Shown in pieces: positions 17,628 through 52,996 of a stretch of DNA of 64,000 bases (the stretch's first letter is position 1; each line of letters opens with the position of its first letter). A program made the translations under genes and the position numbers. Below the pieces are notes generated by a model. It saw nothing but the letters and a program-made list of their open reading frames with translations. It searched no databases and was not told where the DNA came from. The DNA is from Candidatus Zixiibacteriota bacterium (GTDB taxonomy: Bacteria > Zixibacteria > MSB-5A5 > UBA10806), in assembly GCA_024641335.1 (NCBI GenBank), contig JAHEDG010000001.1, positions 46,910-110,909 on the forward strand, given 5' to 3'.

Positions 17628-17843
17628 TTAACCGATAAAATTGGAGACAGGAGGTAGATCATCGCTTTTGTTTTTATTTTGTTTATGATGCGACAATTGG
17701 GGGGTCAGTATGTTTTTCGAACGCATTTGAGCCTCGGCCGCCGCTACCATATCCCCGGTGATTCCGCGGGTTTTATCTTTGGCGGTTCGGTCGATCTCAT
17801 GGGTTTCTGGCATTAACGATTTGGCACTCGGAATTTCTTTCAT
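17628..17843 (-). CDS. Small hypothetical protein (71 aa) with consensus Shine-Dalgarno
   Basis: On the minus strand, AGGAGG lies 7 nt upstream of ATG (the + strand shows 'catattttccctcct'). Sits in a 526-bp intergenic gap. No recognisable domain. Confidence 0.45.
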   Translation of the reverse strand: MKEIPSAKSLMPETHEIDRTAKDKTRGITGDMVAAAEAQMRSKNILTPQLSHHKQNKNKSDDLPPVSNFIG

Positions 17844-17902
17844 ATTTTCCCTCCTGATTATATATCGGCATAATAAGCCCAAAATCTTAGTGTTTTATGT
17901 AG

Positions 17903-17931
17903 TTGACATAATATTTGGCCGGTTCTAATAT
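17903..17931 (+). promoter_or_regulatory. Candidate sigma-70 promoter (TTGACA-N17-TAATAT) for the sensor kinase gene
   Basis: Near-consensus -35 and -10 hexamers with a 17-nt spacer. They end about 8 nt before the ATG at 17939, implying a leaderless or very short-leader mRNA. Confidence 0.5.
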
Positions 17932-17938
17932 TCAATTA

Positions 17939-19948
17939 ATGAGACAGGATAAATGGAACAGACCATTTCCTTTTTTCGGCCTGAAATTACGTCATGCCGT
18001 AGCCCTTCTGGTGTGCCTGGGGCTGATTTTGGTTCTGGCCGGGTATTTTTCAGTAAATGTAGGGCAAAAAGCTGCATTCAAAGCGGTAACCGCCCAGGGA
18101 CGAGCCCTGACCGAATCGCTGTTATCGTCGGCCCAGATAATTATCGAGGCGGACGATGAATTTACAGCCGAGGGTATTGATCGGCTATCAGCGGGGATCG
18201 CCGGATTTACCAGACGGATAAAAAGCCCGACCCAGGGTAATCTCGACAGCCTCAGGCAGATGGTTCAGGCGGAGAAAATATATTATATGCGAAAGCAGGA
18301 GATGATCGCGGTATCGTCCGGCAAGAGTGTATTCCCCTGGGATGATATCAAATCCTGGCTCGATTCGCTGGAGATCGATCCGGAGACCGAGATCATTTAT
18401 GAATTTCGGCAGGATGATACCGATCGGTATCTGTGGGCCTATTTCCCTTATGATAAAGAAAAAGGTATCTTCCTGGTCGCCCGGTGGCTTTACGGCCAAT
18501 ACGGCAATAGCAATCTGGGGTTATCGTATCTTCTGAATCAGGTGGCCAGAGAATCCGGAGTAGAATATATCATGCTCCAGAATCTCGACGGGATTATATT
18601 CGCGTCGAAAAAAGTTGCCAGTATGCCTCGTATAAGCGACGATCCTTTTTTGGGAGAAGCGCTCAAAAGCGATACCACCTGCAGCAGGCTCATTATTTTT
18701 CAAGACAGGGAAATACTGGAAACCACCAGGCGGTTCGAATCCAGAGAATTCGAGGGGCTTTTCCGGGTAGGGCTGTCGATGTTTGGATATCGGGAGATAA
18801 CCGATGGCATGAAAAGTCAGGTATGGCTGATGGTGGCGGCCCTGATAATGTTAGGGATGTTGGCTTTCGGGGTGGTTGTGGGATTTCAGAATTTCGATCT
18901 GCTAAAAGCCGGCCTGGATAAGGCCGATATCATATCCCGCAATCTGCTCGATTCGATTCCCGGGCCGGTGATCGCGGTCGACAGAAACCTGATCATTACC
19001 GATATCAACTCCGCCGCCAGATCGAGTTTCGGGTTGCAATCGCTGCGGGCGGGAACGGATTACCGCGGGGCGTTCAGGGATGATCCGTTCAGATTCGATC
19101 CGGTGGTGCGAAATATGAGAATCGCCGGTTTCGAGGGGAGAGTGACCGACTCCGGAAATCGTTATTTTATTACATCCACCCCTTTGATCGGCTCCGACGG
19201 TGAATTGATAGGGGCTATCGCCATCGCCCAGGATATCACCGATACCCGCCGTCTGGAAGAAATAGCCGAATCACGCCGCCGTCTCTCGGAACTCGGCGCG
19301 CTGGCCGCTTCGATGGCTCACGAGATAAGGAATCCTCTTAACGCCATCGGCATAACTATTCAAAGGATGAAAAACGAGATCAGGCCGAAAGAAAATTCAG
19401 ACGAGTATGACCGTTTCATCGACGGCTTGAAAATGGAAATCAGCCGGCTCAACTCGATTATAGAGAAATTTCTGGCTGTCGCTCGGTCAGTTCGTCCGGA
19501 GATAGCTGATGTTGATATAGAAGATCTGATTTCCCGCGCGGTGGATCTTTTCCGGACGCAGGCCGAGGCCAGGAAAATCGTTATCGACTGGAAAGCCGGG
19601 TCGTCCGATACAATAATACAAGGCGACAAGGACGGCCTGACACAGGCGCTGATCAATATTATAAAGAATAGTATCGAGGCGTTGCAGAGAGAAGGCCGAA
19701 TAGAGATAGGGGTCGCCCGGAAAAATGATAAGATCATCATATCGATCTCGGATAACGGTCCCGGTATGGAGGATACAGGTTCGGCATTGAAACCGTTTCA
19801 CACGACCAAAAAAGATGGCACCGGGCTGGGGCTTTCCACCGCCTCAAAGATTCTCACTGATCACGGCGGGGAATTGGCCATCGAATCCGCTCCGGGCAGA
19901 GGATGCCGGGTAGATATGATTATTCCGTTAAAACGAGGTTCCCAATGA
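17939..19948 (+). CDS. Sensor histidine kinase (TM + PAS + HisKA + HATPase), NtrB/AtoS-like
   Basis: H-box 'AHEIRNPLNAI'. ATP-binding N, G1 and G2 boxes ('NIIKNSIEA', 'DNGPGM', 'GTGLGLS'). An internal PAS-like region is present. The track ORF starts at 17915 inside the putative promoter, so the Met at 17939 is preferred. Confidence 0.85.
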   Translation: MRQDKWNRPFPFFGLKLRHAVALLVCLGLILVLAGYFSVNVGQKAAFKAVTAQGRALTESLLSSAQIIIEADDEFTAEGIDRLSAGIAGFTRRIKSPTQGNLDSLRQMVQAEKIYYMRKQEMIAVSSGKSVFPWDDIKSWLDSLEIDPETEIIYEFRQDDTDRYLWAYFPYDKEKGIFLVARWLYGQYGNSNLGLSYLLNQVARESGVEYIMLQNLDGIIFASKKVASMPRISDDPFLGEALKSDTTCSRLIIFQDREILETTRRFESREFEGLFRVGLSMFGYREITDGMKSQVWLMVAALIMLGMLAFGVVVGFQNFDLLKAGLDKADIISRNLLDSIPGPVIAVDRNLIITDINSAARSSFGLQSLRAGTDYRGAFRDDPFRFDPVVRNMRIAGFEGRVTDSGNRYFITSTPLIGSDGELIGAIAIAQDITDTRRLEEIAESRRRLSELGALAASMAHEIRNPLNAIGITIQRMKNEIRPKENSDEYDRFIDGLKMEISRLNSIIEKFLAVARSVRPEIADVDIEDLISRAVDLFRTQAEARKIVIDWKAGSSDTIIQGDKDGLTQALINIIKNSIEALQREGRIEIGVARKNDKIIISISDNGPGMEDTGSALKPFHTTKKDGTGLGLSTASKILTDHGGELAIESAPGRGCRVDMIIPLKRGSQ

Positions 19949-21294
19949 GACTATTGGTGATCGATGATGAAGCCCATCAGCGCGAATTGCTTTCCGATTA
20001 TCTGAAAAAAAACGGACATCAGGTAGCTGTCGCCGGTGACGGGGAGGAAGCGATCGAGCTTCTCAAGTCCGAAGGGGCCGAGGCCGCCCTGGTCGATATG
20101 CGGATGCCGAAAATGGATGGTCTGGCATTTATCCGGGCGGGTCTCGATCTGTATCCAGACCTGGCCATAGTGGTCATGACCGCTTATGGCACAGTGGAAT
20201 CGGCGGTCGAGGCCATGAAAGCCGGGGCCTTCGATTATATGCTCAAACCGATTGATCTGGATCATCTGCAGGTTATCCTGACCAGAATTAAAAATAATCA
20301 TCGGCTGGTTATGGAAAACCGTTACCTGAAACGAAAACTTCAGGAAGCTGATGGTCATCAGAAGATTATAGGCGGTTCCGAGGCTATCAGAAAGGTCCTG
20401 GCGGAGGTTTCCAGAATAGCGCAATCTGACGCCACGATTCTGATACGGGGTGAATCGGGTACCGGCAAGGAACTGGTCGCCAACGCTATCCACGCCGCTT
20501 CACCCAGATCCTCCGGACCGTTTTTGGCGGTCAATTGTGCCTCACTGCCGGAAACGCTGCTCGAATCGGAGCTTTTCGGTCATGAGAAGGGGGCCTTCAC
20601 CGGAGCGACCGCCAGGCATCTGGGACGGTTCGAGCTGGCCGATAGAGGGACTATTTTCCTCGATGAGATCGGCGATATCTCTCCGGCCACCCAGGTTAAG
20701 CTTCTGCGGGTATTGGAATCGAGGACTATTCAGAGGATCGGCCAGGGGAAGGATATTGCCGTTGATATCAGGATTGTCTCGGCCACCAACCAGGATCTCG
20801 ATGCCAGGGTCAGGGAAGGTGTTTTTCGGGAGGATCTGTTTTACCGATTGAATGTCATTCCACTGTTCATTCCACCCCTGCGCGAGCGACGCCAGGATAT
20901 ATTACCGCTTTTGGAATTTTTTATCGAAAAATACAACAGGAAAAACAACAAAGCGATCAGGGGAATCACCCCGAAAGCCAAGGACGCTTTGCTCAATTAT
21001 TCGTGGCCGGGCAATGTCCGCGAGTTGGAGAATTTAATCGAAAGGGCGATTGTCCTTTCCACCGGAGAGGTTATAGATCTTGACGATATCGAGTCAGGTG
21101 TCGGGCGTCAGGCTACGGAGAAAGAGATCCTTTTCGCCGATGATCTGGATCTGTCCGGTCTGGAAAAAAAGGCTATAGTCGAGGCTTTGAAAAGAACCAA
21201 CGGAAGTCTGACCCAGGCCGCTGATCTTTTGGGAATTCACAGAAACTCGATCAGGTTGAAAATCAATAAATACGGGATAGATCATAAGAATTGA
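19945..21294 (+). CDS. Sigma-54-dependent response regulator (NtrC family: REC + AAA+ + Fis-type HTH)
   Basis: Receiver 'LLVIDDE...VDMRMP'. Walker A 'GESGTGKE'. GAFTGA loop 'ESELFGHEKGAFTGA'. C-terminal HTH. ATGA start/stop overlap with the kinase gene. Confidence 0.9.
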   Translation: MRLLVIDDEAHQRELLSDYLKKNGHQVAVAGDGEEAIELLKSEGAEAALVDMRMPKMDGLAFIRAGLDLYPDLAIVVMTAYGTVESAVEAMKAGAFDYMLKPIDLDHLQVILTRIKNNHRLVMENRYLKRKLQEADGHQKIIGGSEAIRKVLAEVSRIAQSDATILIRGESGTGKELVANAIHAASPRSSGPFLAVNCASLPETLLESELFGHEKGAFTGATARHLGRFELADRGTIFLDEIGDISPATQVKLLRVLESRTIQRIGQGKDIAVDIRIVSATNQDLDARVREGVFREDLFYRLNVIPLFIPPLRERRQDILPLLEFFIEKYNRKNNKAIRGITPKAKDALLNYSWPGNVRELENLIERAIVLSTGEVIDLDDIESGVGRQATEKEILFADDLDLSGLEKKAIVEALKRTNGSLTQAADLLGIHRNSIRLKINKYGIDHKN

Positions 21295-21403
21295 TGCACA
21301 ATACTATTTCGCGCGCGAACAATATTTGTGCGTGGCTTGATTCCGAATTTTGGCCGATATTTATAACGTATTGAGGTTCATCAGGTTAATTGATAGCCAT
21401 GAT

Positions 21404-21418
21404 TGGCACGGAAATTGT
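21404..21418 (+). promoter_or_regulatory. Candidate sigma-54 (-24/-12) promoter: TGGCACG-N4-TTGT
   Basis: Perfect -24 element TGGCAC. The -12 element is TTGT (consensus TTGC) at the correct spacing, about 40 nt upstream of the 21457 start and directly downstream of the NtrC-type activator gene. Confidence 0.45.
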
Positions 21419-21456
21419 ATTAATAATTGACGGGAAATATGAGAATGGAGGACAAA

Positions 21457-22326
21457 ATGACGAGCAATCGCGAAACGACAAGGATGAAGTCACTGTTGGT
21501 ATTAGTTGTTTCCCTTATGCTTTTGGCCATTGCCTGCGATGTTAGAGAGACTGTTTATGTAGATGGTCAGGATATCACTCCTCCGCCGGTTCCGTCGGGC
21601 GTAAGATCGATCACCGGAGACGGAGTGGTCTGGGTGCATTGGAATGAGATAACAGGGGTTGACGATCTCGAGGGTTTCAAGATTTTTCGCAGTATAGATA
21701 ATAATATTTTTAACCGAATCGCCACGGTTTCGGCCGCGGTCAGCAGCTATGCCGATTATAATGTAATCAACGGCCAGACTTATTTTTACGGAGTCAGCTC
21801 TTTTGATTTTGACGGGAACGAATCCAACGAATCATTCGATTACGTGATCGTATTCGACACGCCCCGTCCCGAAGGTATCGCGACCATTTTCAATTCCGCC
21901 GACCCGGGTTATACCGATATCTCCGGCTTTGATTTTTCATCGGAGACCAGGGTGCTTTGGAGCAGTCCGGACTGCGATATTAACTTGGAATACGATGATA
22001 CTCCGGGCATAACCTCGTTTTATATCTGGCTCGGGCCGCACGGCCTGGCGATTCAGGATATGGGTTATACCAGCGGTTTCGACGATATCTCTTATGCTCC
22101 CCCGGCCGGCTGGTCCGGGATGGAATACGTAGAGGCTATCGAGGGTCATACCTATGTGCTCCTGACCATGGATAATCACTACGCGAAGGTTCGTATTTCC
22201 AGTTTCAGCGGTGTTCCCGCTTACAGCATGACCTTCGAATGGGGCTACCAGACAGATACCGGCAATCGTGAACTCAAGATCGATCCCTCTACTCTGGGTA
22301 TCGATATAAGCGAGGCTGGGCAGTAG
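21457..22326 (+). CDS. Lipoprotein with fibronectin type III-like domain
   Basis: GGAGG RBS before the ATG at 21457. Lipobox 'LLAIAC'. FN3-like 'VHWNEITGVDDLEGFKIFRS...YADYNVINGQTYFYGVSSFDFDGNES'. Confidence 0.55.
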   Translation: MTSNRETTRMKSLLVLVVSLMLLAIACDVRETVYVDGQDITPPPVPSGVRSITGDGVVWVHWNEITGVDDLEGFKIFRSIDNNIFNRIATVSAAVSSYADYNVINGQTYFYGVSSFDFDGNESNESFDYVIVFDTPRPEGIATIFNSADPGYTDISGFDFSSETRVLWSSPDCDINLEYDDTPGITSFYIWLGPHGLAIQDMGYTSGFDDISYAPPAGWSGMEYVEAIEGHTYVLLTMDNHYAKVRISSFSGVPAYSMTFEWGYQTDTGNRELKIDPSTLGIDISEAGQ

Positions 22327-22421
22327 CGATGAGGAATATTTTGCAAAGATACCGAGATGGTATCCCGGACGGCCGGACGCTTGAGTCCGCTGTCCGTACC
22401 GATAGAAAGGCGGTGATCGCG

Positions 22422-23900
22422 ATGAAATGGAAAAGTATGGCAATAGCCGCGATCCTGACGGCCGGAATGGCTGTCGGAGCCGGGGCTGGAGAATACTGGG
22501 GAAGACATGGAAACGGACCTGATATAGAGGTCTGGACCAACAAGGGAGATAATTCCACCTATTATTTCGGCGAGGATGTGGCGGTATATTTCCAGGCCGA
22601 GGACGATTGCTATGTCGTGGTTTACGATATCGATCCGTCGGGCGAGGTAACTGTGCTGTTTCCTTCCAATTACTTCAGCAGCAGTTATGTTACCGGCGGA
22701 CGGGTTTACCGCGTGCCGGATTATTACGACGATTACACTCTCGAAGTTTCCGGCAGATCCGGCAGGGAATATATTTACGCCGTGGCCAGCTACGACTATA
22801 TCAATCCTCCCGATTTCATGAAATATATCGGGTACGACTACGGCAATGATGACTCTTACAACGAAGATTATTTTGTCATGAAAGTCCGGGGCGAACAAGA
22901 GGATTTTGTCGAATTTGTCAGGCACAGACTGGTCGGCGATTCGTACTCGGTAGCCTTTACCAGGTTCAATGTCGATACCGGCTACCGTCATCACAACCAT
23001 TACCGCTACTGGGATTATGATCCGTACAATGTCGGTTCCGCCTGGATAGGATGCAATTTCCCTGGCGCGGAGATCTGGATCGATGGTGTTTATTTCGGCA
23101 TCGCGCCGGTTCTTATTCCGAGGATATACTTAGGGCGTCACTGGGTCTGGGTATATTACGGCGGGTATCCGTGCTACCAGCAGTATTTTTATGTCTCCGG
23201 GTACAGCAGGTATTATCTGGATATCAAGGTTGACAGGCGCTATCGGGATACCCGTCACCGTCGCTCCTCATTCAGGGACTGGAGATTCAATGAAGAAAGA
23301 TATCGCAATGACGGTGATTTTCTCAAGGATGTTCGGGCGGTCAGGGAGAAGAACGTCCGCCGTCGGGGATTGCCGTCGAATGTTATCCGCGACCTCGACA
23401 AGAAAGGCGCTATACGGGCGAACGCGCCAATCTTGAAACAGGTCCGAGAGAGCGATAGCAGAAGCGACCGTGTCAGGGTGATGGAGAAGAGACAGGCCCG
23501 GGAAGAGGCCGGGAGGAAGATCGACAGGCGGGGAGAAACTGCCGCGCCGTCCAATCCCGAGAGGATAAAAAAAGAGATCAGGCCGGGCGAGAATATGATT
23601 GACAGCCGGGGGATCGAAAGGCAAATTAACCCTGACGAATCCCGGCGGGAGAAAAACGGGAAAACGATAGAAAAGAGACAGTCGGTTCGTGATTCCGATT
23701 CAGGGAAAACGGTTATCAAAGAAAAGAAGAAGGAAACGCCAAAGAGCGAAACCGTAAAAGAGACCAAAATTAGGAGCGGAGAATCGGTCAAATCCGAGGG
23801 GAAATCCTCAAAAGAGCCTTCTGTGAAACGTAACAGGGAATCGAAACAGAAGGTTAAATCTCCGAAGAAATCGTCGTCGGATAAGGATGGGAGACAATGA
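22422..23900 (+). CDS. Secreted DUF4384 + PEGA domain protein with ~230-aa highly charged low-complexity tail
   Basis: Signal peptide 'MKWKSMAIAAILTAGMAVGAGAG'. DUF4384-like 'VAVYFQAEDDCYVVVYDIDPSGEVTVLFP'. PEGA-like 'GAEIWIDGVYFGIAPVLIP...GRHWVWV'. C-terminal R/K/E/D/S-rich region. The track ORF has a 31-aa N-terminal extension that would mask the signal peptide. Confidence 0.6.
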   Translation: MKWKSMAIAAILTAGMAVGAGAGEYWGRHGNGPDIEVWTNKGDNSTYYFGEDVAVYFQAEDDCYVVVYDIDPSGEVTVLFPSNYFSSSYVTGGRVYRVPDYYDDYTLEVSGRSGREYIYAVASYDYINPPDFMKYIGYDYGNDDSYNEDYFVMKVRGEQEDFVEFVRHRLVGDSYSVAFTRFNVDTGYRHHNHYRYWDYDPYNVGSAWIGCNFPGAEIWIDGVYFGIAPVLIPRIYLGRHWVWVYYGGYPCYQQYFYVSGYSRYYLDIKVDRRYRDTRHRRSSFRDWRFNEERYRNDGDFLKDVRAVREKNVRRRGLPSNVIRDLDKKGAIRANAPILKQVRESDSRSDRVRVMEKRQAREEAGRKIDRRGETAAPSNPERIKKEIRPGENMIDSRGIERQINPDESRREKNGKTIEKRQSVRDSDSGKTVIKEKKKETPKSETVKETKIRSGESVKSEGKSSKEPSVKRNRESKQKVKSPKKSSSDKDGRQ

Positions 23901-24262
23901 AGAAGAGAATAGCCATAATAGCCATGATGGTCTTATTGGCTGTATCGTCTCCGGCCTGGGCGGTTAAAAAGGTGGAGAAGAAGAAGAAGCAATCGAGCGG
24001 GCAGGTCAATAACCAGCAGGCCCCGTCGGATACCGCCCGGGATAGAGAAGCAACTCCTCCCGGCAGCCGCCAGGAATCGACCCCTCCTTCACCACCTCCG
24101 CCTACTAGAGAAGAACCGAGGGAGCAGCCAAAAGATCGTTTTATTGACAATAATGGCGACGGAATCAACGACGATATTCAGCAGAAACCGTCGGTCCGGA
24201 TCAGGAAAAAAGAGGAACAGCGGCAGGATCCGGAGAAGCAGAACGATAGAAATTTCAGATAG
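23897..24262 (+). CDS. Small secreted disordered acidic/proline-rich protein
   Basis: Signal peptide 'IAIIAMMVLLAVSSPAWA'. KKKK, PPSPPPP and 'DNNGDGINDD' (Ca-binding-like Asp loop) segments. ATGA overlap with the upstream gene. Confidence 0.5.
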   Translation: MKKRIAIIAMMVLLAVSSPAWAVKKVEKKKKQSSGQVNNQQAPSDTARDREATPPGSRQESTPPSPPPPTREEPREQPKDRFIDNNGDGINDDIQQKPSVRIRKKEEQRQDPEKQNDRNFR

Positions 24263-24287
24263 ACAGCGAAAAGAAATCTAAATTTAA

Positions 24288-24313
24288 AAGCCCCGGAAAT
24301 CCGGGGCTTTTTA
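24288..24313 (+). terminator. Rho-independent terminator
   Basis: AAAGCCCCGG-aaat-CCGGGGCTTTTT hairpin followed by a T-run. Confidence 0.8.
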
Positions 24314-24392
24314 TTATAATAAGGCGAACGGCTCCCGCCGAAGATCATAATGGTTGACAAAGAGGCATAAATTCGGAGATAATGAATATAGT

Positions 24393-25298
24393 ATGCCGAC
24401 GGGATTGTCTCTTGTAATCAGGGTAAAATCGCCTTTGGTGATATCCGAAAAGGGAGAATTGGATATCGATATCCTGCGGACCATGCTGGAAACAGGTTTG
24501 GCGGCGCTATCGGGCCATAATGATTATATCGGATATCTCGGTTCGCTTTTCGGCTTGTCCGATACTGTCGGAATGAAGGTCAACACGCTTGGAGGGCCGG
24601 GTATCTCGACCCATGCCGAAGCGGTTGGTTTGATTTCGGATTTTTTGGGTCAATCCGGTATTCCCCTCAAAAAACAGCTGATTTGGGATCGTCAGGATAG
24701 AGAGCTTTCAGCCGTCGGTTTCAAAGTGACCGCCCGTGGGGACGGTCCCCGTTGTTTCGGCACCGATCATAAAGGGGTAGGATATTCCGATAACCTGGTT
24801 TCCCGAGGCAGAATCGGGGGTCTTTTGAGCAGGATTCTGGAGGAATATTGCGATTCGCTTATTAATCTGCCGGTGTTGAAAGATCACGGCATTGCCGGGA
24901 TAACCTGTTCGATGAAGAATCATTATGGGAGTATTCACAATCCCAACAAATATCACGGCAACGCCTGCGACCCGTATATCTCCGACCTCAACAGTCTGGA
25001 ACAGATAAGGTCCAGGCAGCGTTTGATAATAGTGGACGCCTTGAAAGTTCAGTATCATGGCGGCCCGGCGTACCACCGGCAATGGGCGTCGAATTACGGG
25101 GCCCTGTTATTTGGAATCGATCCGGTGGCGGTTGACACCGTCGGTTACGGGATTATCGAGAATTTAAGGGTATCCGCCGGATTGGAAAAGCTGAAGGGAA
25201 CGAAAAGAGAGCCGAAATATATAAGTAGATCTGAAGAGTACGGACTCGGCAACAGCGATCCGGGAAAAATCGATCTTCGGGAGTTTACCGTAACTTAG
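24393..25298 (+). CDS. DUF362 domain protein
   Basis: 'DTVGMKVNTLGGPGISTH' core typical of DUF362. The track ORF starts at TTG 24354. That TTG is part of a TTGACA-N18-GATAAT promoter-like sequence, so the ATG at 24393 is preferred. Confidence 0.55.
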   Translation: MPTGLSLVIRVKSPLVISEKGELDIDILRTMLETGLAALSGHNDYIGYLGSLFGLSDTVGMKVNTLGGPGISTHAEAVGLISDFLGQSGIPLKKQLIWDRQDRELSAVGFKVTARGDGPRCFGTDHKGVGYSDNLVSRGRIGGLLSRILEEYCDSLINLPVLKDHGIAGITCSMKNHYGSIHNPNKYHGNACDPYISDLNSLEQIRSRQRLIIVDALKVQYHGGPAYHRQWASNYGALLFGIDPVAVDTVGYGIIENLRVSAGLEKLKGTKREPKYISRSEEYGLGNSDPGKIDLREFTVT

Positions 25299-46483: not shown

Positions 46484-47187
46484 ATCACATAAAGAACAAA
46501 CCATCCATAATATCGCTCTATGATAAGGAATCGGCGGTAGCCACCGAACTGCGCAGAATAGTCTCGAATCTGAAATCGGTCGGCGAAAACAAAATCCGCA
46601 GTCTGCTGGTGACATCAGCTACTGTGGCTGAGGGCAAATCCATTACCAGCTGTTATCTCGGGATTACCGCCGCCAGCCTGATGCAGGCTAAGGTCGCCGT
46701 GATCGATTTCGATTTACGCAAGCCGAGAATCCACGAATATTTCGGTATTGCTCCCGATGGCGGTTTGGCCGATGTTCTCTCCGGAAAAGCCGGCATCAAG
46801 AATGTTTCCAGGTCTACGGGAATTCCCAATTTATCAGTCATCACCGCGGGAAAAGTCAGCTCTTTGCCGACCGATATTCTGGATAGAGGAGATATCCCGG
46901 CCTTGTTTCAGGAGTTAAAGTTCTATTTCGATTTCATTGTTATCGATTCACCGCCGGTGATCCCGGTTTCCGATCCCCTTCTTTTAGCAGACAATGTCGA
47001 CGGTGTATTGATAGTTATCAGAGCCGGATCCACCCAACGGGAAGTGGTCAACCGAGCCGCCAATCTTTTGCGGAACGCAGGCAGTAATATCGTTGGAGTT
47101 GTCCTCAACGACTATGAAGACGTCCTTCCTTATTATTATAAGGACAGGTATTACGGTTATCATTACTCCGATAAGAAACCAGGATAA
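46480..47187 (+). CDS. Bacterial tyrosine-protein kinase (BY-kinase, CpsD/CapB-like cytoplasmic ATPase)
   Basis: Walker A 'SATVAEGKS', A' 'VAVIDFDLRKP', B 'DFIVIDSPP'. C-terminal tyrosine cluster 'YYYKDRYYGYHY'. Confidence 0.85.
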   Translation: MNHIKNKPSIISLYDKESAVATELRRIVSNLKSVGENKIRSLLVTSATVAEGKSITSCYLGITAASLMQAKVAVIDFDLRKPRIHEYFGIAPDGGLADVLSGKAGIKNVSRSTGIPNLSVITAGKVSSLPTDILDRGDIPALFQELKFYFDFIVIDSPPVIPVSDPLLLADNVDGVLIVIRAGSTQREVVNRAANLLRNAGSNIVGVVLNDYEDVLPYYYKDRYYGYHYSDKKPG

Positions 47188-47706
47188 TCAGATCCGTTAA
47201 ATTATCCGCATGCATTCTTTTTGCAATGTTTTGCATAATGGAATTATATGATCTATGTTTTAGTATTGGCCGCAATTATCGTTTTGGATCTGGGGAGCCT
47301 CCCTGTATTTTTGTGCCACCATAAGGTGTTATAAGATATAAAGATATAAGCGTTAAAATTATCTTGGGCGGTTAGATATATATTCTTTTGTCAAGACAGC
47401 GTTGTGGCAGCGAATTTGCGATTACATTTCCATAATTAAGGTGAAACTAATTTTGGAGAGTAATTTTTGAGATACCAAAGTCCTGTCGCAAATCCACTAG
47501 CCCACTACTGGGAAGAAGAGTTTATAGGGTTTTGGGGTCAATGGCTGAGATTCCGTGCAGGATCTCAACGGTTGCTCTACTATTTTCTCGGTGAGTTGGT
47601 ATTTGCCAATATCTATCTGCTTTTGGAGAGTATTGCCAACCATACCGTTATCTCCGCAGGACATTCGATAATCGTCAGGGTAAAATATAAACTTCACCCA
47701 TCGGTA

Positions 47707-48366
47707 ATGGTCAAAAGGGCTCTTGATATCGCCGGATCGCTGGTCGGTCTGGTTATCAGTCTTCCGTTTTGGCTAATAATACCGGCACTCATCAAACTCG
47801 ACAGCCCCGGGCCGATCTTTTATACGCAGGTTAGGGTAGGACGTAACCGTCGGAGAGCAAGCCGTCGCCATGTGGCCGTGGAAGCTCCTCAGAAGCGCGG
47901 CCGCGGTGATCGTCGTCAGGAATCGGGATTTGGCAAGCCGTTTAGAATAATCAAATTCAGGACTATGAAACTGGATGCCGAAAGTCAATCCGGCCCTGTC
48001 TGGGCTACCAAGAGCGATCCGAGGATTACCAGAATCGGACGTATTCTCAGAAAGACCAGAATAGATGAAATCCCTCAGCTTCTCAATGTGTTGACCGGAG
48101 AGATGAGCATTGTCGGACCTCGCCCGGAGAGGCCGTATTTTGTGGCCAGGCTCGATGGCGTTGTAGAAAATTACCTGGAACGTTTCAATGTCAAGCCGGG
48201 AGTTACCGGTCTGGCGCAGGTCGAGCATAAATATGATGAGAGCATCGATGACGTAAGCCGCAAAACCAGGTATGATCTGCGGTACATCAGAAGCTGGAGC
48301 GTTATCCAGGATATCAAGATCATGCTTAAGACGGTGATTGTTGTTATTAGCGCTCGCGGAATGTAG
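47707..48366 (+). CDS. Polyprenyl-phosphate sugar-1-phosphate transferase (Bac_transf family, small WbaP/EpsL-like) with Arg-rich insertion
   Basis: 'MVKRALDIAGSLVGLV...PGPIFYTQVRVG', 'KFRTM', 'DEIPQLLNVLTGEMSIVGPRPERP'. The track ORF extends to 47467, but family alignment supports the Met at 47707. Confidence 0.8.
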   Translation: MVKRALDIAGSLVGLVISLPFWLIIPALIKLDSPGPIFYTQVRVGRNRRRASRRHVAVEAPQKRGRGDRRQESGFGKPFRIIKFRTMKLDAESQSGPVWATKSDPRITRIGRILRKTRIDEIPQLLNVLTGEMSIVGPRPERPYFVARLDGVVENYLERFNVKPGVTGLAQVEHKYDESIDDVSRKTRYDLRYIRSWSVIQDIKIMLKTVIVVISARGM

Positions 48367-48677: not shown

Positions 48678-49385
48678 ATGGTTGGAAAAATATCCTTAAT
48701 ACTAATTTCAGGCTTTTTGCTTATTAGTCCGCCGCCGGCTGCGGGTCAGGATGATCAGCAGATTACTATTGTCACCAGCCCTCCGGGAGCAACAGTATTT
48801 CTTTATGGCGAAATGGATCTAATCGCCAACACTCCCGCCAGGCTGCCCTTGAAACTTTCTGGAAGATACCAGGCCAAAATTACCCGTCCCGGATACGAAA
48901 CCTGGAAAGGCGATTTGACCTTTGTGCCGGGAAGCAATAACAATTTCGAAATCAAAATGACCAGGAAAAGCCGTTTAAAGGCGGGTCTTCGTTCTGTATT
49001 CGTGCCCGGTTGGGGGCAGATATATTCCGGCAAGAAGACCGGCGGAATCATGCTGACATCCGGGGCGGCCGTTTCGGCAGTGGCCGTATATTTCACAGAC
49101 AGCAGATATAAAGATAAATTTTCCGATTACAATATCGCTATCATGAACTACACGAACGCGGTTTCTATAGAAGACAGGATCCGTTATAAAACGATCCTCG
49201 ATGATAAACAAAGAACGGCTTACAGGGCTGAAACCGACAGACGGATAGCCATTGCCGCGGCCGGGGCATTATGGGTATTCAATGTTCTGGACGCCGTTTT
49301 GTTTTTCCCCGAGACCGATCTGTTTTATCCTACTGTGGCCTCCATAGATGGCGGCGCGCAGTTGACTTTTACGGTCAGGTTTTAG
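48678..49385 (+). CDS. Secreted PEGA-domain protein
   Basis: Signal peptide. 'SPPGATVFLYGEMDLIANTPARLPLKLSGRYQAKITRPGYETW' PEGA motif. C-terminal hydrophobic segment. Confidence 0.6.
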   Translation: MVGKISLILISGFLLISPPPAAGQDDQQITIVTSPPGATVFLYGEMDLIANTPARLPLKLSGRYQAKITRPGYETWKGDLTFVPGSNNNFEIKMTRKSRLKAGLRSVFVPGWGQIYSGKKTGGIMLTSGAAVSAVAVYFTDSRYKDKFSDYNIAIMNYTNAVSIEDRIRYKTILDDKQRTAYRAETDRRIAIAAAGALWVFNVLDAVLFFPETDLFYPTVASIDGGAQLTFTVRF

Positions 49386-52101: not shown

Positions 52102-52570
52102 GAGCCGCCAAGATAGAAATTATTCGGGCTAACTTTCGATGCCTAATATCGAGGCGTCATTGAACCACCGGTTGTTCCAGCCATATTGAATAAATAAAAC
52201 AATCAAAAATCTCCATATTTTTCTGAAACAGTTTTGAGCATTTTGCCGGCCGGAATTTTCGCAATTCGCAAAGTGCGATGGATTTTTGGCTTATTCAGCC
52301 GTGCAAATCAAGATCCGCCATAACTCCGGCCGCCCGCGTTCCGGAGGCGTATCCTGTTGATAATATGACTGTTACGGATCAATGTTTTCATGGCCGATCA
52401 GTTTTAAGAGGTTACGGCATGCCGTTTGCCATATTACGGGTCGGAACTTTGAAAACAGAATGAATTTCCGAAGGAATTGCCTCGATATTTCGGGAAATTA
52501 AAGTTGCCGAAATAATATTCGATAAGAAACAGTGAAGAACTAATAACCCAATAAACAGAGAGGTGAGCAA

Positions 52571-52996
52571 ATGTTGAGGAATTTCCATCGTAACAATAAG
52601 GGTTTCACCCTTATCGAGCTGATGATCGTCGTGGTCATTATCGGTATCCTGGCCGCACTGGCCATTCCGCGTTTCATGCGTTCTACCACCAAATCCAAGC
52701 AGTCAGAAGCCAAGCAGCTCTTAAAGCAGGTCTACACCATGCAGAGAGCCTACAGACAGGAATTCAATACTTACACCCTTAACGGTGTAACCGCCAGCGC
52801 CGCCGCTCCGCAGGCTTTCGCTACGATCGGCGTCGATGTAATGGGTTCCGCCAGATACTCATTCGCCATGGTTTCCGACGTAAACACTTTCACTTGCACG
52901 GCTACCGCCGATCTTGACGATGATCCTACAATCGATACCTGGACAATCGATCAGAATGGTACTCTGACCAACACGATCGACGACTCTTCGCTCTAA
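52571..52996 (+). CDS. pilA: Type IV pilin (PilA-like major pilin), copy 1
   Basis: Prepilin leader plus 'G|FTLIELMIVVVIIGILAALAIPRF' N-methylation/hydrophobic segment with Glu at position 5. Confidence 0.85.
   Translation: MLRNFHRNNKGFTLIELMIVVVIIGILAALAIPRFMRSTTKSKQSEAKQLLKQVYTMQRAYRQEFNTYTLNGVTASAAAPQAFATIGVDVMGSARYSFAMVSDVNTFTCTATADLDDDPTIDTWTIDQNGTLTNTIDDSSL

Follow-up and report, generated by a model that had tools for sequence, protein, structure and literature searches.

A predicted sigma-54 promoter with a conserved upstream enhancer ahead of three genes for exported proteins in Zixibacteria and related uncultured lineages

How are three genes for exported proteins switched on when they lie directly behind a two-component regulatory pair in a bacterium of an uncultured phylum? 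The question is raised by a 64,000-nucleotide (nt) stretch of Candidatus Zixiibacteriota DNA (assembly GCA_024641335.1, contig JAHEDG010000001.1, forward-strand positions 46,910 to 110,909), the whole of which is called the window here and within which all positions are numbered. The genes, named G1 (for a lipoprotein with an FN3 domain), G2 (for a DUF4384-PEGA protein) and G3 (for a small secreted protein), follow those for a sensor histidine kinase and an NtrC-family activator, and a preliminary description of this DNA had proposed that a sigma-54 promoter between the activator gene and G1 heads them as an operon. As judged from the sequence and that of orthologous loci, the intergenic region very probably does hold a functional sigma-54 promoter driven from a conserved enhancer, in a classic NtrC-type enhancer-dependent unit. 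The features discussed are collected in Table 1.

The 162-nt gap from the activator stop codon (TGA, 21292-21294) to the G1 start codon (ATG 21457) houses the motif TGGCACGGAAATTGT at 21404-21418 on the + strand, and it is here that a near-consensus -24/-12 element, TGGCACG-N4-TTGT, had been described. The TGGCAC hexamer, the spacing and the TTG are perfect, and the fourth base of the -12 element is a T in place of the canonical C (TTGT rather than TTGC). The motif stands before the GGAGG and ATG of G1 as had been said, at a distance of 38 nt from the start codon and not 40. The usual spacing from the -12 element to +1 is 12 nt, and transcription is predicted to start accordingly at about A21430. 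No sigma-70-like site was found in 21295-21456 by a consensus scan. At the gathering score, Rfam matched nothing in the whole window, and the conserved intergenic blocks are thus not explained by a riboswitch or a known small RNA.

Homologues of G1 number in the hundreds and, where named, come from Zixibacteria, WOR-3 and similar lineages. Scanning one genome per species gave 380 relatives, of which the best 80 loci, from Zixibacteria, WOR-3, TA06, Stahlbacteria, Hydrothermota, Ignavibacteria, Poribacteria, Eisenbacteria, Gemmatimonadota and Bacteroidota, were retained for the comparative counts. With the untrained textbook consensus, a near-perfect -24/-12 element was found 0-70 nt before G1 in 24 of the 80 loci (0.05 expected), and at a looser threshold an element was found in 61. 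Exact matches to TGGCAY-N5-TTGH numbered 69 in 1.76 Mb searched on both strands, and 48 of these 69 fell in the 155 nt before a G1 orthologue, where 0.15 were expected, these zones making up 0.7% of the searched sequence. The motif is thus strongly biased in its position, where occurrence at chance frequency without such bias had been named in the preliminary description as the outcome that would speak against a promoter.

Simple weighted-consensus scanning of the window was undiscriminating, as many matches in coding regions scored 16-17, equal to the promoter site; the case for the promoter is decided by the family matrix and the positional analysis alone. The matrix was trained on the orthologous sites with the window held out (T-GG-C-A-[C/T]-N5-T-T-G-[C 37/A 20/T 13]). 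The held-out window site scored 22.46 bits, a score matched by 0 of 1,725,300 background positions, and the runner-up in the window scored 15.0 bits, so that the matrix scan suggested in the preliminary description placed the promoter site first in 64 kb by more than 7 bits. Sites of at least 12 bits were present in 71 of the 80 loci (0.59 expected), a count that is partly circular since the matrix was trained on those sites.

Conservation within the spacer agreed with the counts. The activator-G1 spacer of the window was aligned with those of the four closest loci, whose G1 proteins are only 49-62% identical, and the blocks conserved in this five-way alignment were GCACAAT, GAACAA-N-TTTGTGC, an A/T-rich block, TTGGCAYG-N4-TTG and GGAGG-N5-ATG. 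The A/T-rich block (21359-21389) showed no exact match, by eye, to the IHF consensus WATCAANNNNTTR, and it may be a DNA-bending site. In Zixibacteria RBG-1 (locus L011) the activator gene is cut off from the enhancer and promoter by a strong terminator hairpin, which is followed by a canonical TGGCACGAGGGTTGC, and the promoter there must therefore act independently of upstream transcription.

Inverted repeats for an upstream activator had been anticipated at about 21300-21380, and the predicted enhancer was indeed found in this region, as a conserved dyad at about -106 and a further half-site at about -132. The centre of the dyad, at 21324, precedes the T of TGGCAC by 80 nt. The GCACAAT of the upstream half-site was invariant in the five-way alignment, and most loci that have an adjacent activator gene also have a half-site with a TGCA core, about 20-21 bp ahead of the main dyad. 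The consensus GCACA-N5-TGTGC, at 9 or more of its 10 positions, occurred in 43 of 72 loci at a distance of 47-117 nt upstream of the -24 element (about 0.5 expected), with 72 matches in total over 888,616 positions, and the sole copy within the 64-kb window is that at 21317-21331. The dyad also occurs in WOR-3, TA06, Stahlbacteria and Hydrothermota loci without a nearby activator gene, and among the first three of these lineages it is perfect (GCACAATTTTTGTGC) in L005, L008, L017, L018, L020-L022, L024, L027 and L028, which have no activator gene within 6 kb. In loci of the Ignavibacteria/Bacteroidota type (L048-L073) TGGCAC-N5-TTGA is kept but a GCACA-N5-TGTGC dyad cannot be recognised, and the activator there may well be a different one.

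The pair of genes upstream was much as had been described: a PAS histidine kinase and a sigma-54 activator by their Pfam domains, the activator ATG overlapping the kinase stop as ATGA (19945-19948). The activator scored above all Pfam cut-offs for Response_reg (92 bits), Sigma54_activat (238 bits, E 7e-71), AAA_lid_14 (97) and HTH_8 (47), and its translation holds an intact GAFTGA loop in the context FGHEKGAFTGATARH, GAFTGA being a criterion for functional sigma-54 activators (PMC3162934). It fell below every NCBIfam equivalog cut-off (AtoC 497/714, NtrC 435/558.6 and ZraR 434/760 bits), and by these scores it is a member of the broad NtrC family outside any named orthologue group. The kinase resembles AtoS and ZraS and is the equivalog of neither (AtoS 226 bits against a cut-off of 646). 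Its reading frame spans 17915-19948 and is open from TTG 17915; the start is more likely to be ATG 17939, as the window, L001, L003 and L004 agree fully in this codon and in both hexamers of a predicted sigma-70-type promoter before it. Only 8 nt separate the end of the -10 hexamer from this ATG, so that the kinase-activator mRNA may well be leaderless or nearly so. An 84-amino-acid open reading frame (17628-17882, - strand) diverges from the kinase gene, is kept in the same three loci with coding-like conservation, and has no Pfam match.

Whether the adjacent activator is the one that acts here was considered first among the alternatives. The promoter could be real and yet be fired, or helped, by an activator encoded elsewhere, with the adjacent pair regulating other targets. 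Many loci (types C and F) have the same promoter and enhancer and yet lack any activator gene within 6 kb, so that adjacency is not required, and the type-D loci of Ignavibacteria and Bacteroidota have a -24/-12 element with no recognisable dyad. On the other side, an orthologous activator (47-74% identity) lies directly upstream of G1 in about 19 loci, and there it is always the same orthologue with the dyad always present; the recognition helix LGIHRN[ST][IL]R is common to all 19 of these activators and absent from the paralogous activators of the same loci. The only copy of the dyad in the window also sits at this promoter. The simplest account of these data is one orthologous activator whose target may be neighbouring or distant, and we consider firing from elsewhere unlikely.

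Several observations weigh against the promoter itself. Within the window the motif is unremarkable, since there is one exact TGGCAC-N5-TTGY and at least one arose in 11 of 100 shuffles, and with one mismatch allowed 3 matches were found where 3.5 were expected by chance. Because the motif in the window alone is at chance level, the orthologous loci were turned to, and its significance comes from position and conservation. The -12 TTGT lacks the canonical C, and the -12 GC has been described as playing a part at the fork junction (PMC5095919), though among 71 orthologous promoters this base is C in 37, A in 20 and T in 13, so the missing C is a trait of the promoter family and not an oddity of the window copy. 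A six-frame search of the window and the 80 loci found no open reading frame with an RpoN box, and we infer the presence of sigma-54 from the activator with its intact GAFTGA. Enhancer-promoter distances fall in at least two helical phases across lineages. No terminator stands between the activator gene and G1 in the window, and some read-through from the upstream sigma-70-type promoter could therefore occur.

Some of these same points would favour an account in which G1-G3 are expressed mainly by read-through, in an operon of five genes, or from a housekeeping promoter that went unrecognised, with TGGCAC-N5-TTGT a chance or vestigial match: the insignificance of the motif in the window alone, the missing -12 C and the lack of an intrinsic terminator after the activator gene. 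The housekeeping promoter consensus is, moreover, poorly known for these phyla. Against this account, the element keeps its place in 48 to 71 of the 80 loci whatever the upstream gene, a terminator precedes it in L011, and the intergenic region of the window has no sigma-70-like site. Leaving aside the Shine-Dalgarno sequence and ATG, conservation between the activator stop and the start codon is clearest in the dyad and the -24/-12 element; the A/T-rich block is conserved too in the closest clade. Expression chiefly by these routes thus appears very improbable. That the inverted repeat at 21296-21331 is an RNA hairpin (a terminator, an attenuator or a stabiliser of the activator mRNA) and not an enhancer is hardly credible, for although it is an 18-nt imperfect palindrome with 72% complementarity and the RNA of 21285-21345 folds at -15.9 kcal/mol, this fold is unremarkable (z -1.8, 7 of 200 shuffles as good) and has no U tract, the GCACA/TGTGC half-sites are kept across loci while the intervening bases vary without compensatory pairing, which argues for a protein-binding site and not a terminator, the dyad is present even next to an upstream gene that is unrelated or lies on the opposite strand, and its geometry matches that of the enteric NtrC enhancer, TGCACC(A/T)4TGGTGCA (PMC4987338).

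With a sigma-54 promoter driven from the conserved enhancer as the preferred reading, the following course of events is proposed. The kinase-activator operon would be transcribed from its own sigma-70-type promoter, and a signal, probably periplasmic or membrane-borne, would lead the PAS kinase to phosphorylate the receiver domain of the activator. The activator would then oligomerise on the enhancer, comprising GAACA-N5-TGTGC at about -106 and the TGCAC half-site at about -132, and by DNA looping it would reach the sigma-54 RNA polymerase that waits on TGGCAC-N5-TTGT (21404-21418) as a closed complex. There the GAFTGA loop would make contact and, with hydrolysis of ATP, the promoter would open, and a single mRNA would run from about 21430 through G1, G2 and G3 to the hairpin at 24286-24311.

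Table 1. Coordinates of the features of the locus, as positions in the window.
Feature	Position	Strand	Description
Sigma-70-type promoter of the kinase-activator operon (predicted)	17903..17931	+	TTGACA-N17-TAATAT; 10/12 consensus positions
Sensor histidine kinase	17939..19948	+	PAS, HisKA, HATPase_c (Pfam); two membrane segments
NtrC-family response regulator / sigma-54 enhancer-binding protein	19945..21294	+	REC, AAA+ with GAFTGA, HTH_8
Enhancer half-site (predicted), TGCACAAT (TGCAC)	21295..21302	+	About -132; begins 1 nt after the activator stop codon
Main enhancer dyad (predicted), GAACA-ATATT-TGTGC	21317..21331	+	Conserved across loci; about -106 from predicted start
A/T-rich block, ATTTATAAC-N3-TTG ... 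CAGGTTA	21359..21389	+	Between enhancer and promoter; kept in the closest clade only
Sigma-54 -24/-12 element (predicted), TGGCACGGAAATTGTA	21404..21419	+	Family-matrix score, conservation, positional bias
Predicted transcription start, ~A21430	21429..21431	+	Placed by the -12 to +1 spacing; 5' untranslated region ~27 nt
Ribosome-binding site GGAGG	21447..21451	+	5 nt before ATG 21457; invariant in the five-way alignment
G1, acidic lipoprotein, 289 amino acids	21457..22326	+	FN3 domain and C-terminal beta domain, HmuY-like fold
G2, secreted protein	22422..23900	+	DUF4384, Tyr/Trp-rich segment, PEGA, tail
G3, small secreted protein, 121 amino acids	23897..24262	+	Highly charged, net basic; motif DRFIDNNGDGINDD, EF-hand-like loop
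Intrinsic terminator	24286..24318	+	Hairpin 24286-24311, then T run; operon end

The products of the three genes were in part those that had been described. G1 does encode a lipoprotein with an FN3 domain, with a lipobox (LAIAC, in the context ...LLAIAC-DV) whose Cys27 is invariant in 30 homologues, an N-terminal helix at residues 4-26 in the structure model, conserved histidines at 231 and 241 (His231, His241) and an isoelectric point of 4.05; the protein has no Pfam or NCBIfam match, and a profile of its family finds only FN3 in the PDB. The DUF4384 and PEGA domains of G2 were borne out by Pfam (73.1 bits against 27, and 28.0 against a gathering score of 20.8), whereas its start is most likely ATG 22422 and not 22329, where the open reading frame opens and where the preliminary description had begun the gene: the later start gives a signal peptide (MKWKSMAIAA), and an alignment with 28 homologues places their starts there too. 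The N-terminal DUF4384 domain resembles macroglobulin and immunoglobulin domains in a low-confidence model (predicted local distance difference test score, pLDDT, 55), and the literature found on DUF4384 gives only its occurrence as an accessory domain. The G2 tail is 190 amino acids long, polybasic, Ser-rich and disordered. G3, whose start overlaps the G2 stop as ATGA, is small and secreted as had been claimed and is not acidic, the mature protein having an isoelectric point of 9.6 and 22 Lys and Arg against 18 Asp and Glu; the acidic protein is G1. The small gene after G2 encodes the motif D-x-F-x-D-x-[DN]-x-[DN]-G-[IV]-[DN]-D in 25 loci. Three open reading frames on the minus strand within G1 and G2 (21937-22443, 22245-23000 and 23255-23791) were judged spurious, as the + strand genes encode conserved proteins.

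The strong terminator held to end the operon was found as well, as the hairpin GCCCCGG-AAAT-CCGGGGC followed by TTTTTATT, with a fold of -19.7 kcal/mol (z -3.6) that was equalled by 0 of 200 shuffles; it was missed by a simple consensus scan. No terminator-like site was found on the + strand between G1 and G2, the only + strand hit being a weak one (5 pairs) at 23095, inside G2. Just past the terminator, TTGACA-18-GATAAT (11/12) at 24354-24383 (+) heads a DUF362 gene (24393-25298) and the next transcription unit.

Genes of the G1, G2 and G3 types recur together in many loci, and by their predicted export the products most likely make up a module of the cell envelope or matrix, with a possible role in ligand binding or stress. 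Being secreted or lipid-anchored, they could serve the surface remodelling by which the preliminary description had labelled them. In about ten loci from Zixibacteria and Ignavibacteria (L009, L014, L019, L031, L038, L040, L046, L050, L057 and L068) hrcA-grpE-dnaK lies directly after the G1-G2-small-protein module, about 2.8-3 kb past the G1 start, which gives a hint of a stress connection; at these loci a gene for an outer-membrane beta-barrel protein precedes the activator gene. In the WOR-3, TA06 and Stahlbacteria loci with the perfect dyad the functions of G2 are shared between two genes, one for a Trp/Tyr-rich protein whose basic tail is long and one for a short protein with DUF4384 and PEGA, and at these loci of the WOR-3 type a gene for a LEA-like lipoprotein lies upstream of G1. 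At L048-L073 the G1 orthologues lie between pyrR-pyrB-pyrC (upstream) and a gene for a giant histidine kinase of about 1280 amino acids (downstream).

Elsewhere in the window, the second-best family-matrix site was CGGCATGCCGTTTGCC at 52415-52430 (+, 15.0 bits), which is intergenic, with a type IV pilin gene (52571-52996; N_methyl and pilin domain) 140 nt downstream. Pilin genes are classic sigma-54 targets, and the site may therefore be a second sigma-54 promoter. A possible third is TGGCAGCGAATTTGCG at 47405-47420 (+), 47 nt ahead of a gene for a bacterial sugar transferase (47467-48366; Bac_transf, E 3e-63); the surrounding genes resemble an exopolysaccharide cluster. This polysaccharide-type cluster also holds a gene for a second PEGA protein (PEGA and DUF5683; 48678-49385, +).

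The promoter class, enhancer logic and gene layout of the locus are textbook, and the mechanism would be no surprise to a specialist. What appears to be new is the conservation across phyla, in uncultured lineages, of the set of activator, enhancer, promoter and module, together with the relaxed -12 position; no literature was found on either, nor any joining Zixibacteria with sigma-54. Taken at its widest, the pattern might reflect an ancient regulon spanning Zixibacteria, WOR-3, TA06, Stahlbacteria, Hydrothermota, Ignavibacteria and relatives, with one orthologous activator of invariant recognition helix (LGIHRNT[IL]R), the GCACA-N5-TGTGC site, a -24/-12 element often without the -12 C, and an exported module of three proteins, the second being a DUF4384-PEGA protein or a Trp/Tyr-rich protein with a polybasic tail. 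We offer this tentatively, as a possibility that falls a little short of an even chance. The module would then constitute an envelope system not yet described, for instance for capture of haem or metal ligands or for matrix or stress protection.

For annotation, the locus supplies a high-confidence predicted sigma-54 promoter and an enhancer motif for uncultured phyla, whose genomes can be searched with the family matrix and the dyad for more members of the regulon. The exported targets fit the view of sigma-54 as chiefly a regulator of the cell exterior (PMC3162934). The analysis also flags a conserved module of three genes for exported proteins whose regulation can now be predicted. In addition, the -12 C is often missing from this promoter family, conserved as it is, which provides a small natural data set on what sigma-54 needs at -12.

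Several known systems resemble parts of this locus. By the HmuY-like fold of its C-terminal domain, G1 recalls the HmuY/Tfo haem-binding lipoproteins of Bacteroidota (HmuY family, Pfam PF14064), from which it differs in its extra FN3 domain, in having no Pfam or NCBIfam match and in having no gene for an hmuR-type TonB-dependent receptor beside it. The regulatory arrangement is like that of NtrB-NtrC and glnAp2, with a kinase, an activator of REC-AAA+-HTH_8 architecture, a -24/-12 promoter and dyad enhancers about 100-140 bp upstream. The enhancers share 5-bp half-sites and a 5-bp A/T-rich spacer, and the consensus of the window family has the innermost base of each half-site changed. The window activator is not an equivalog of NtrC, its sensor is a membrane PAS kinase whereas NtrB is cytoplasmic, its targets are secreted envelope proteins and not nitrogen-assimilation genes, and its -12 element is TTGT. 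In ZraS-ZraR and zraP, of the envelope stress response of E. coli and Salmonella, a membrane kinase and a sigma-54 activator likewise adjoin their target, ZraP being an exported envelope protein; the window pair scored below the cut-offs for ZraR and for ZraS (148/479 bits), the target lies downstream in the same direction and is not divergent, and ZraP is unrelated to the products of G1-G3. AtoS-AtoC, the regulators of atoDAEB, gave the best NCBIfam models for both window proteins, with scores below the cut-offs and with no genes for acetoacetate or short-chain fatty-acid metabolism nearby. AtoC-like activators, among which the AtoC-like pair of the window falls, form the largest group of such activators and one that extends across phyla (PMC3162934).

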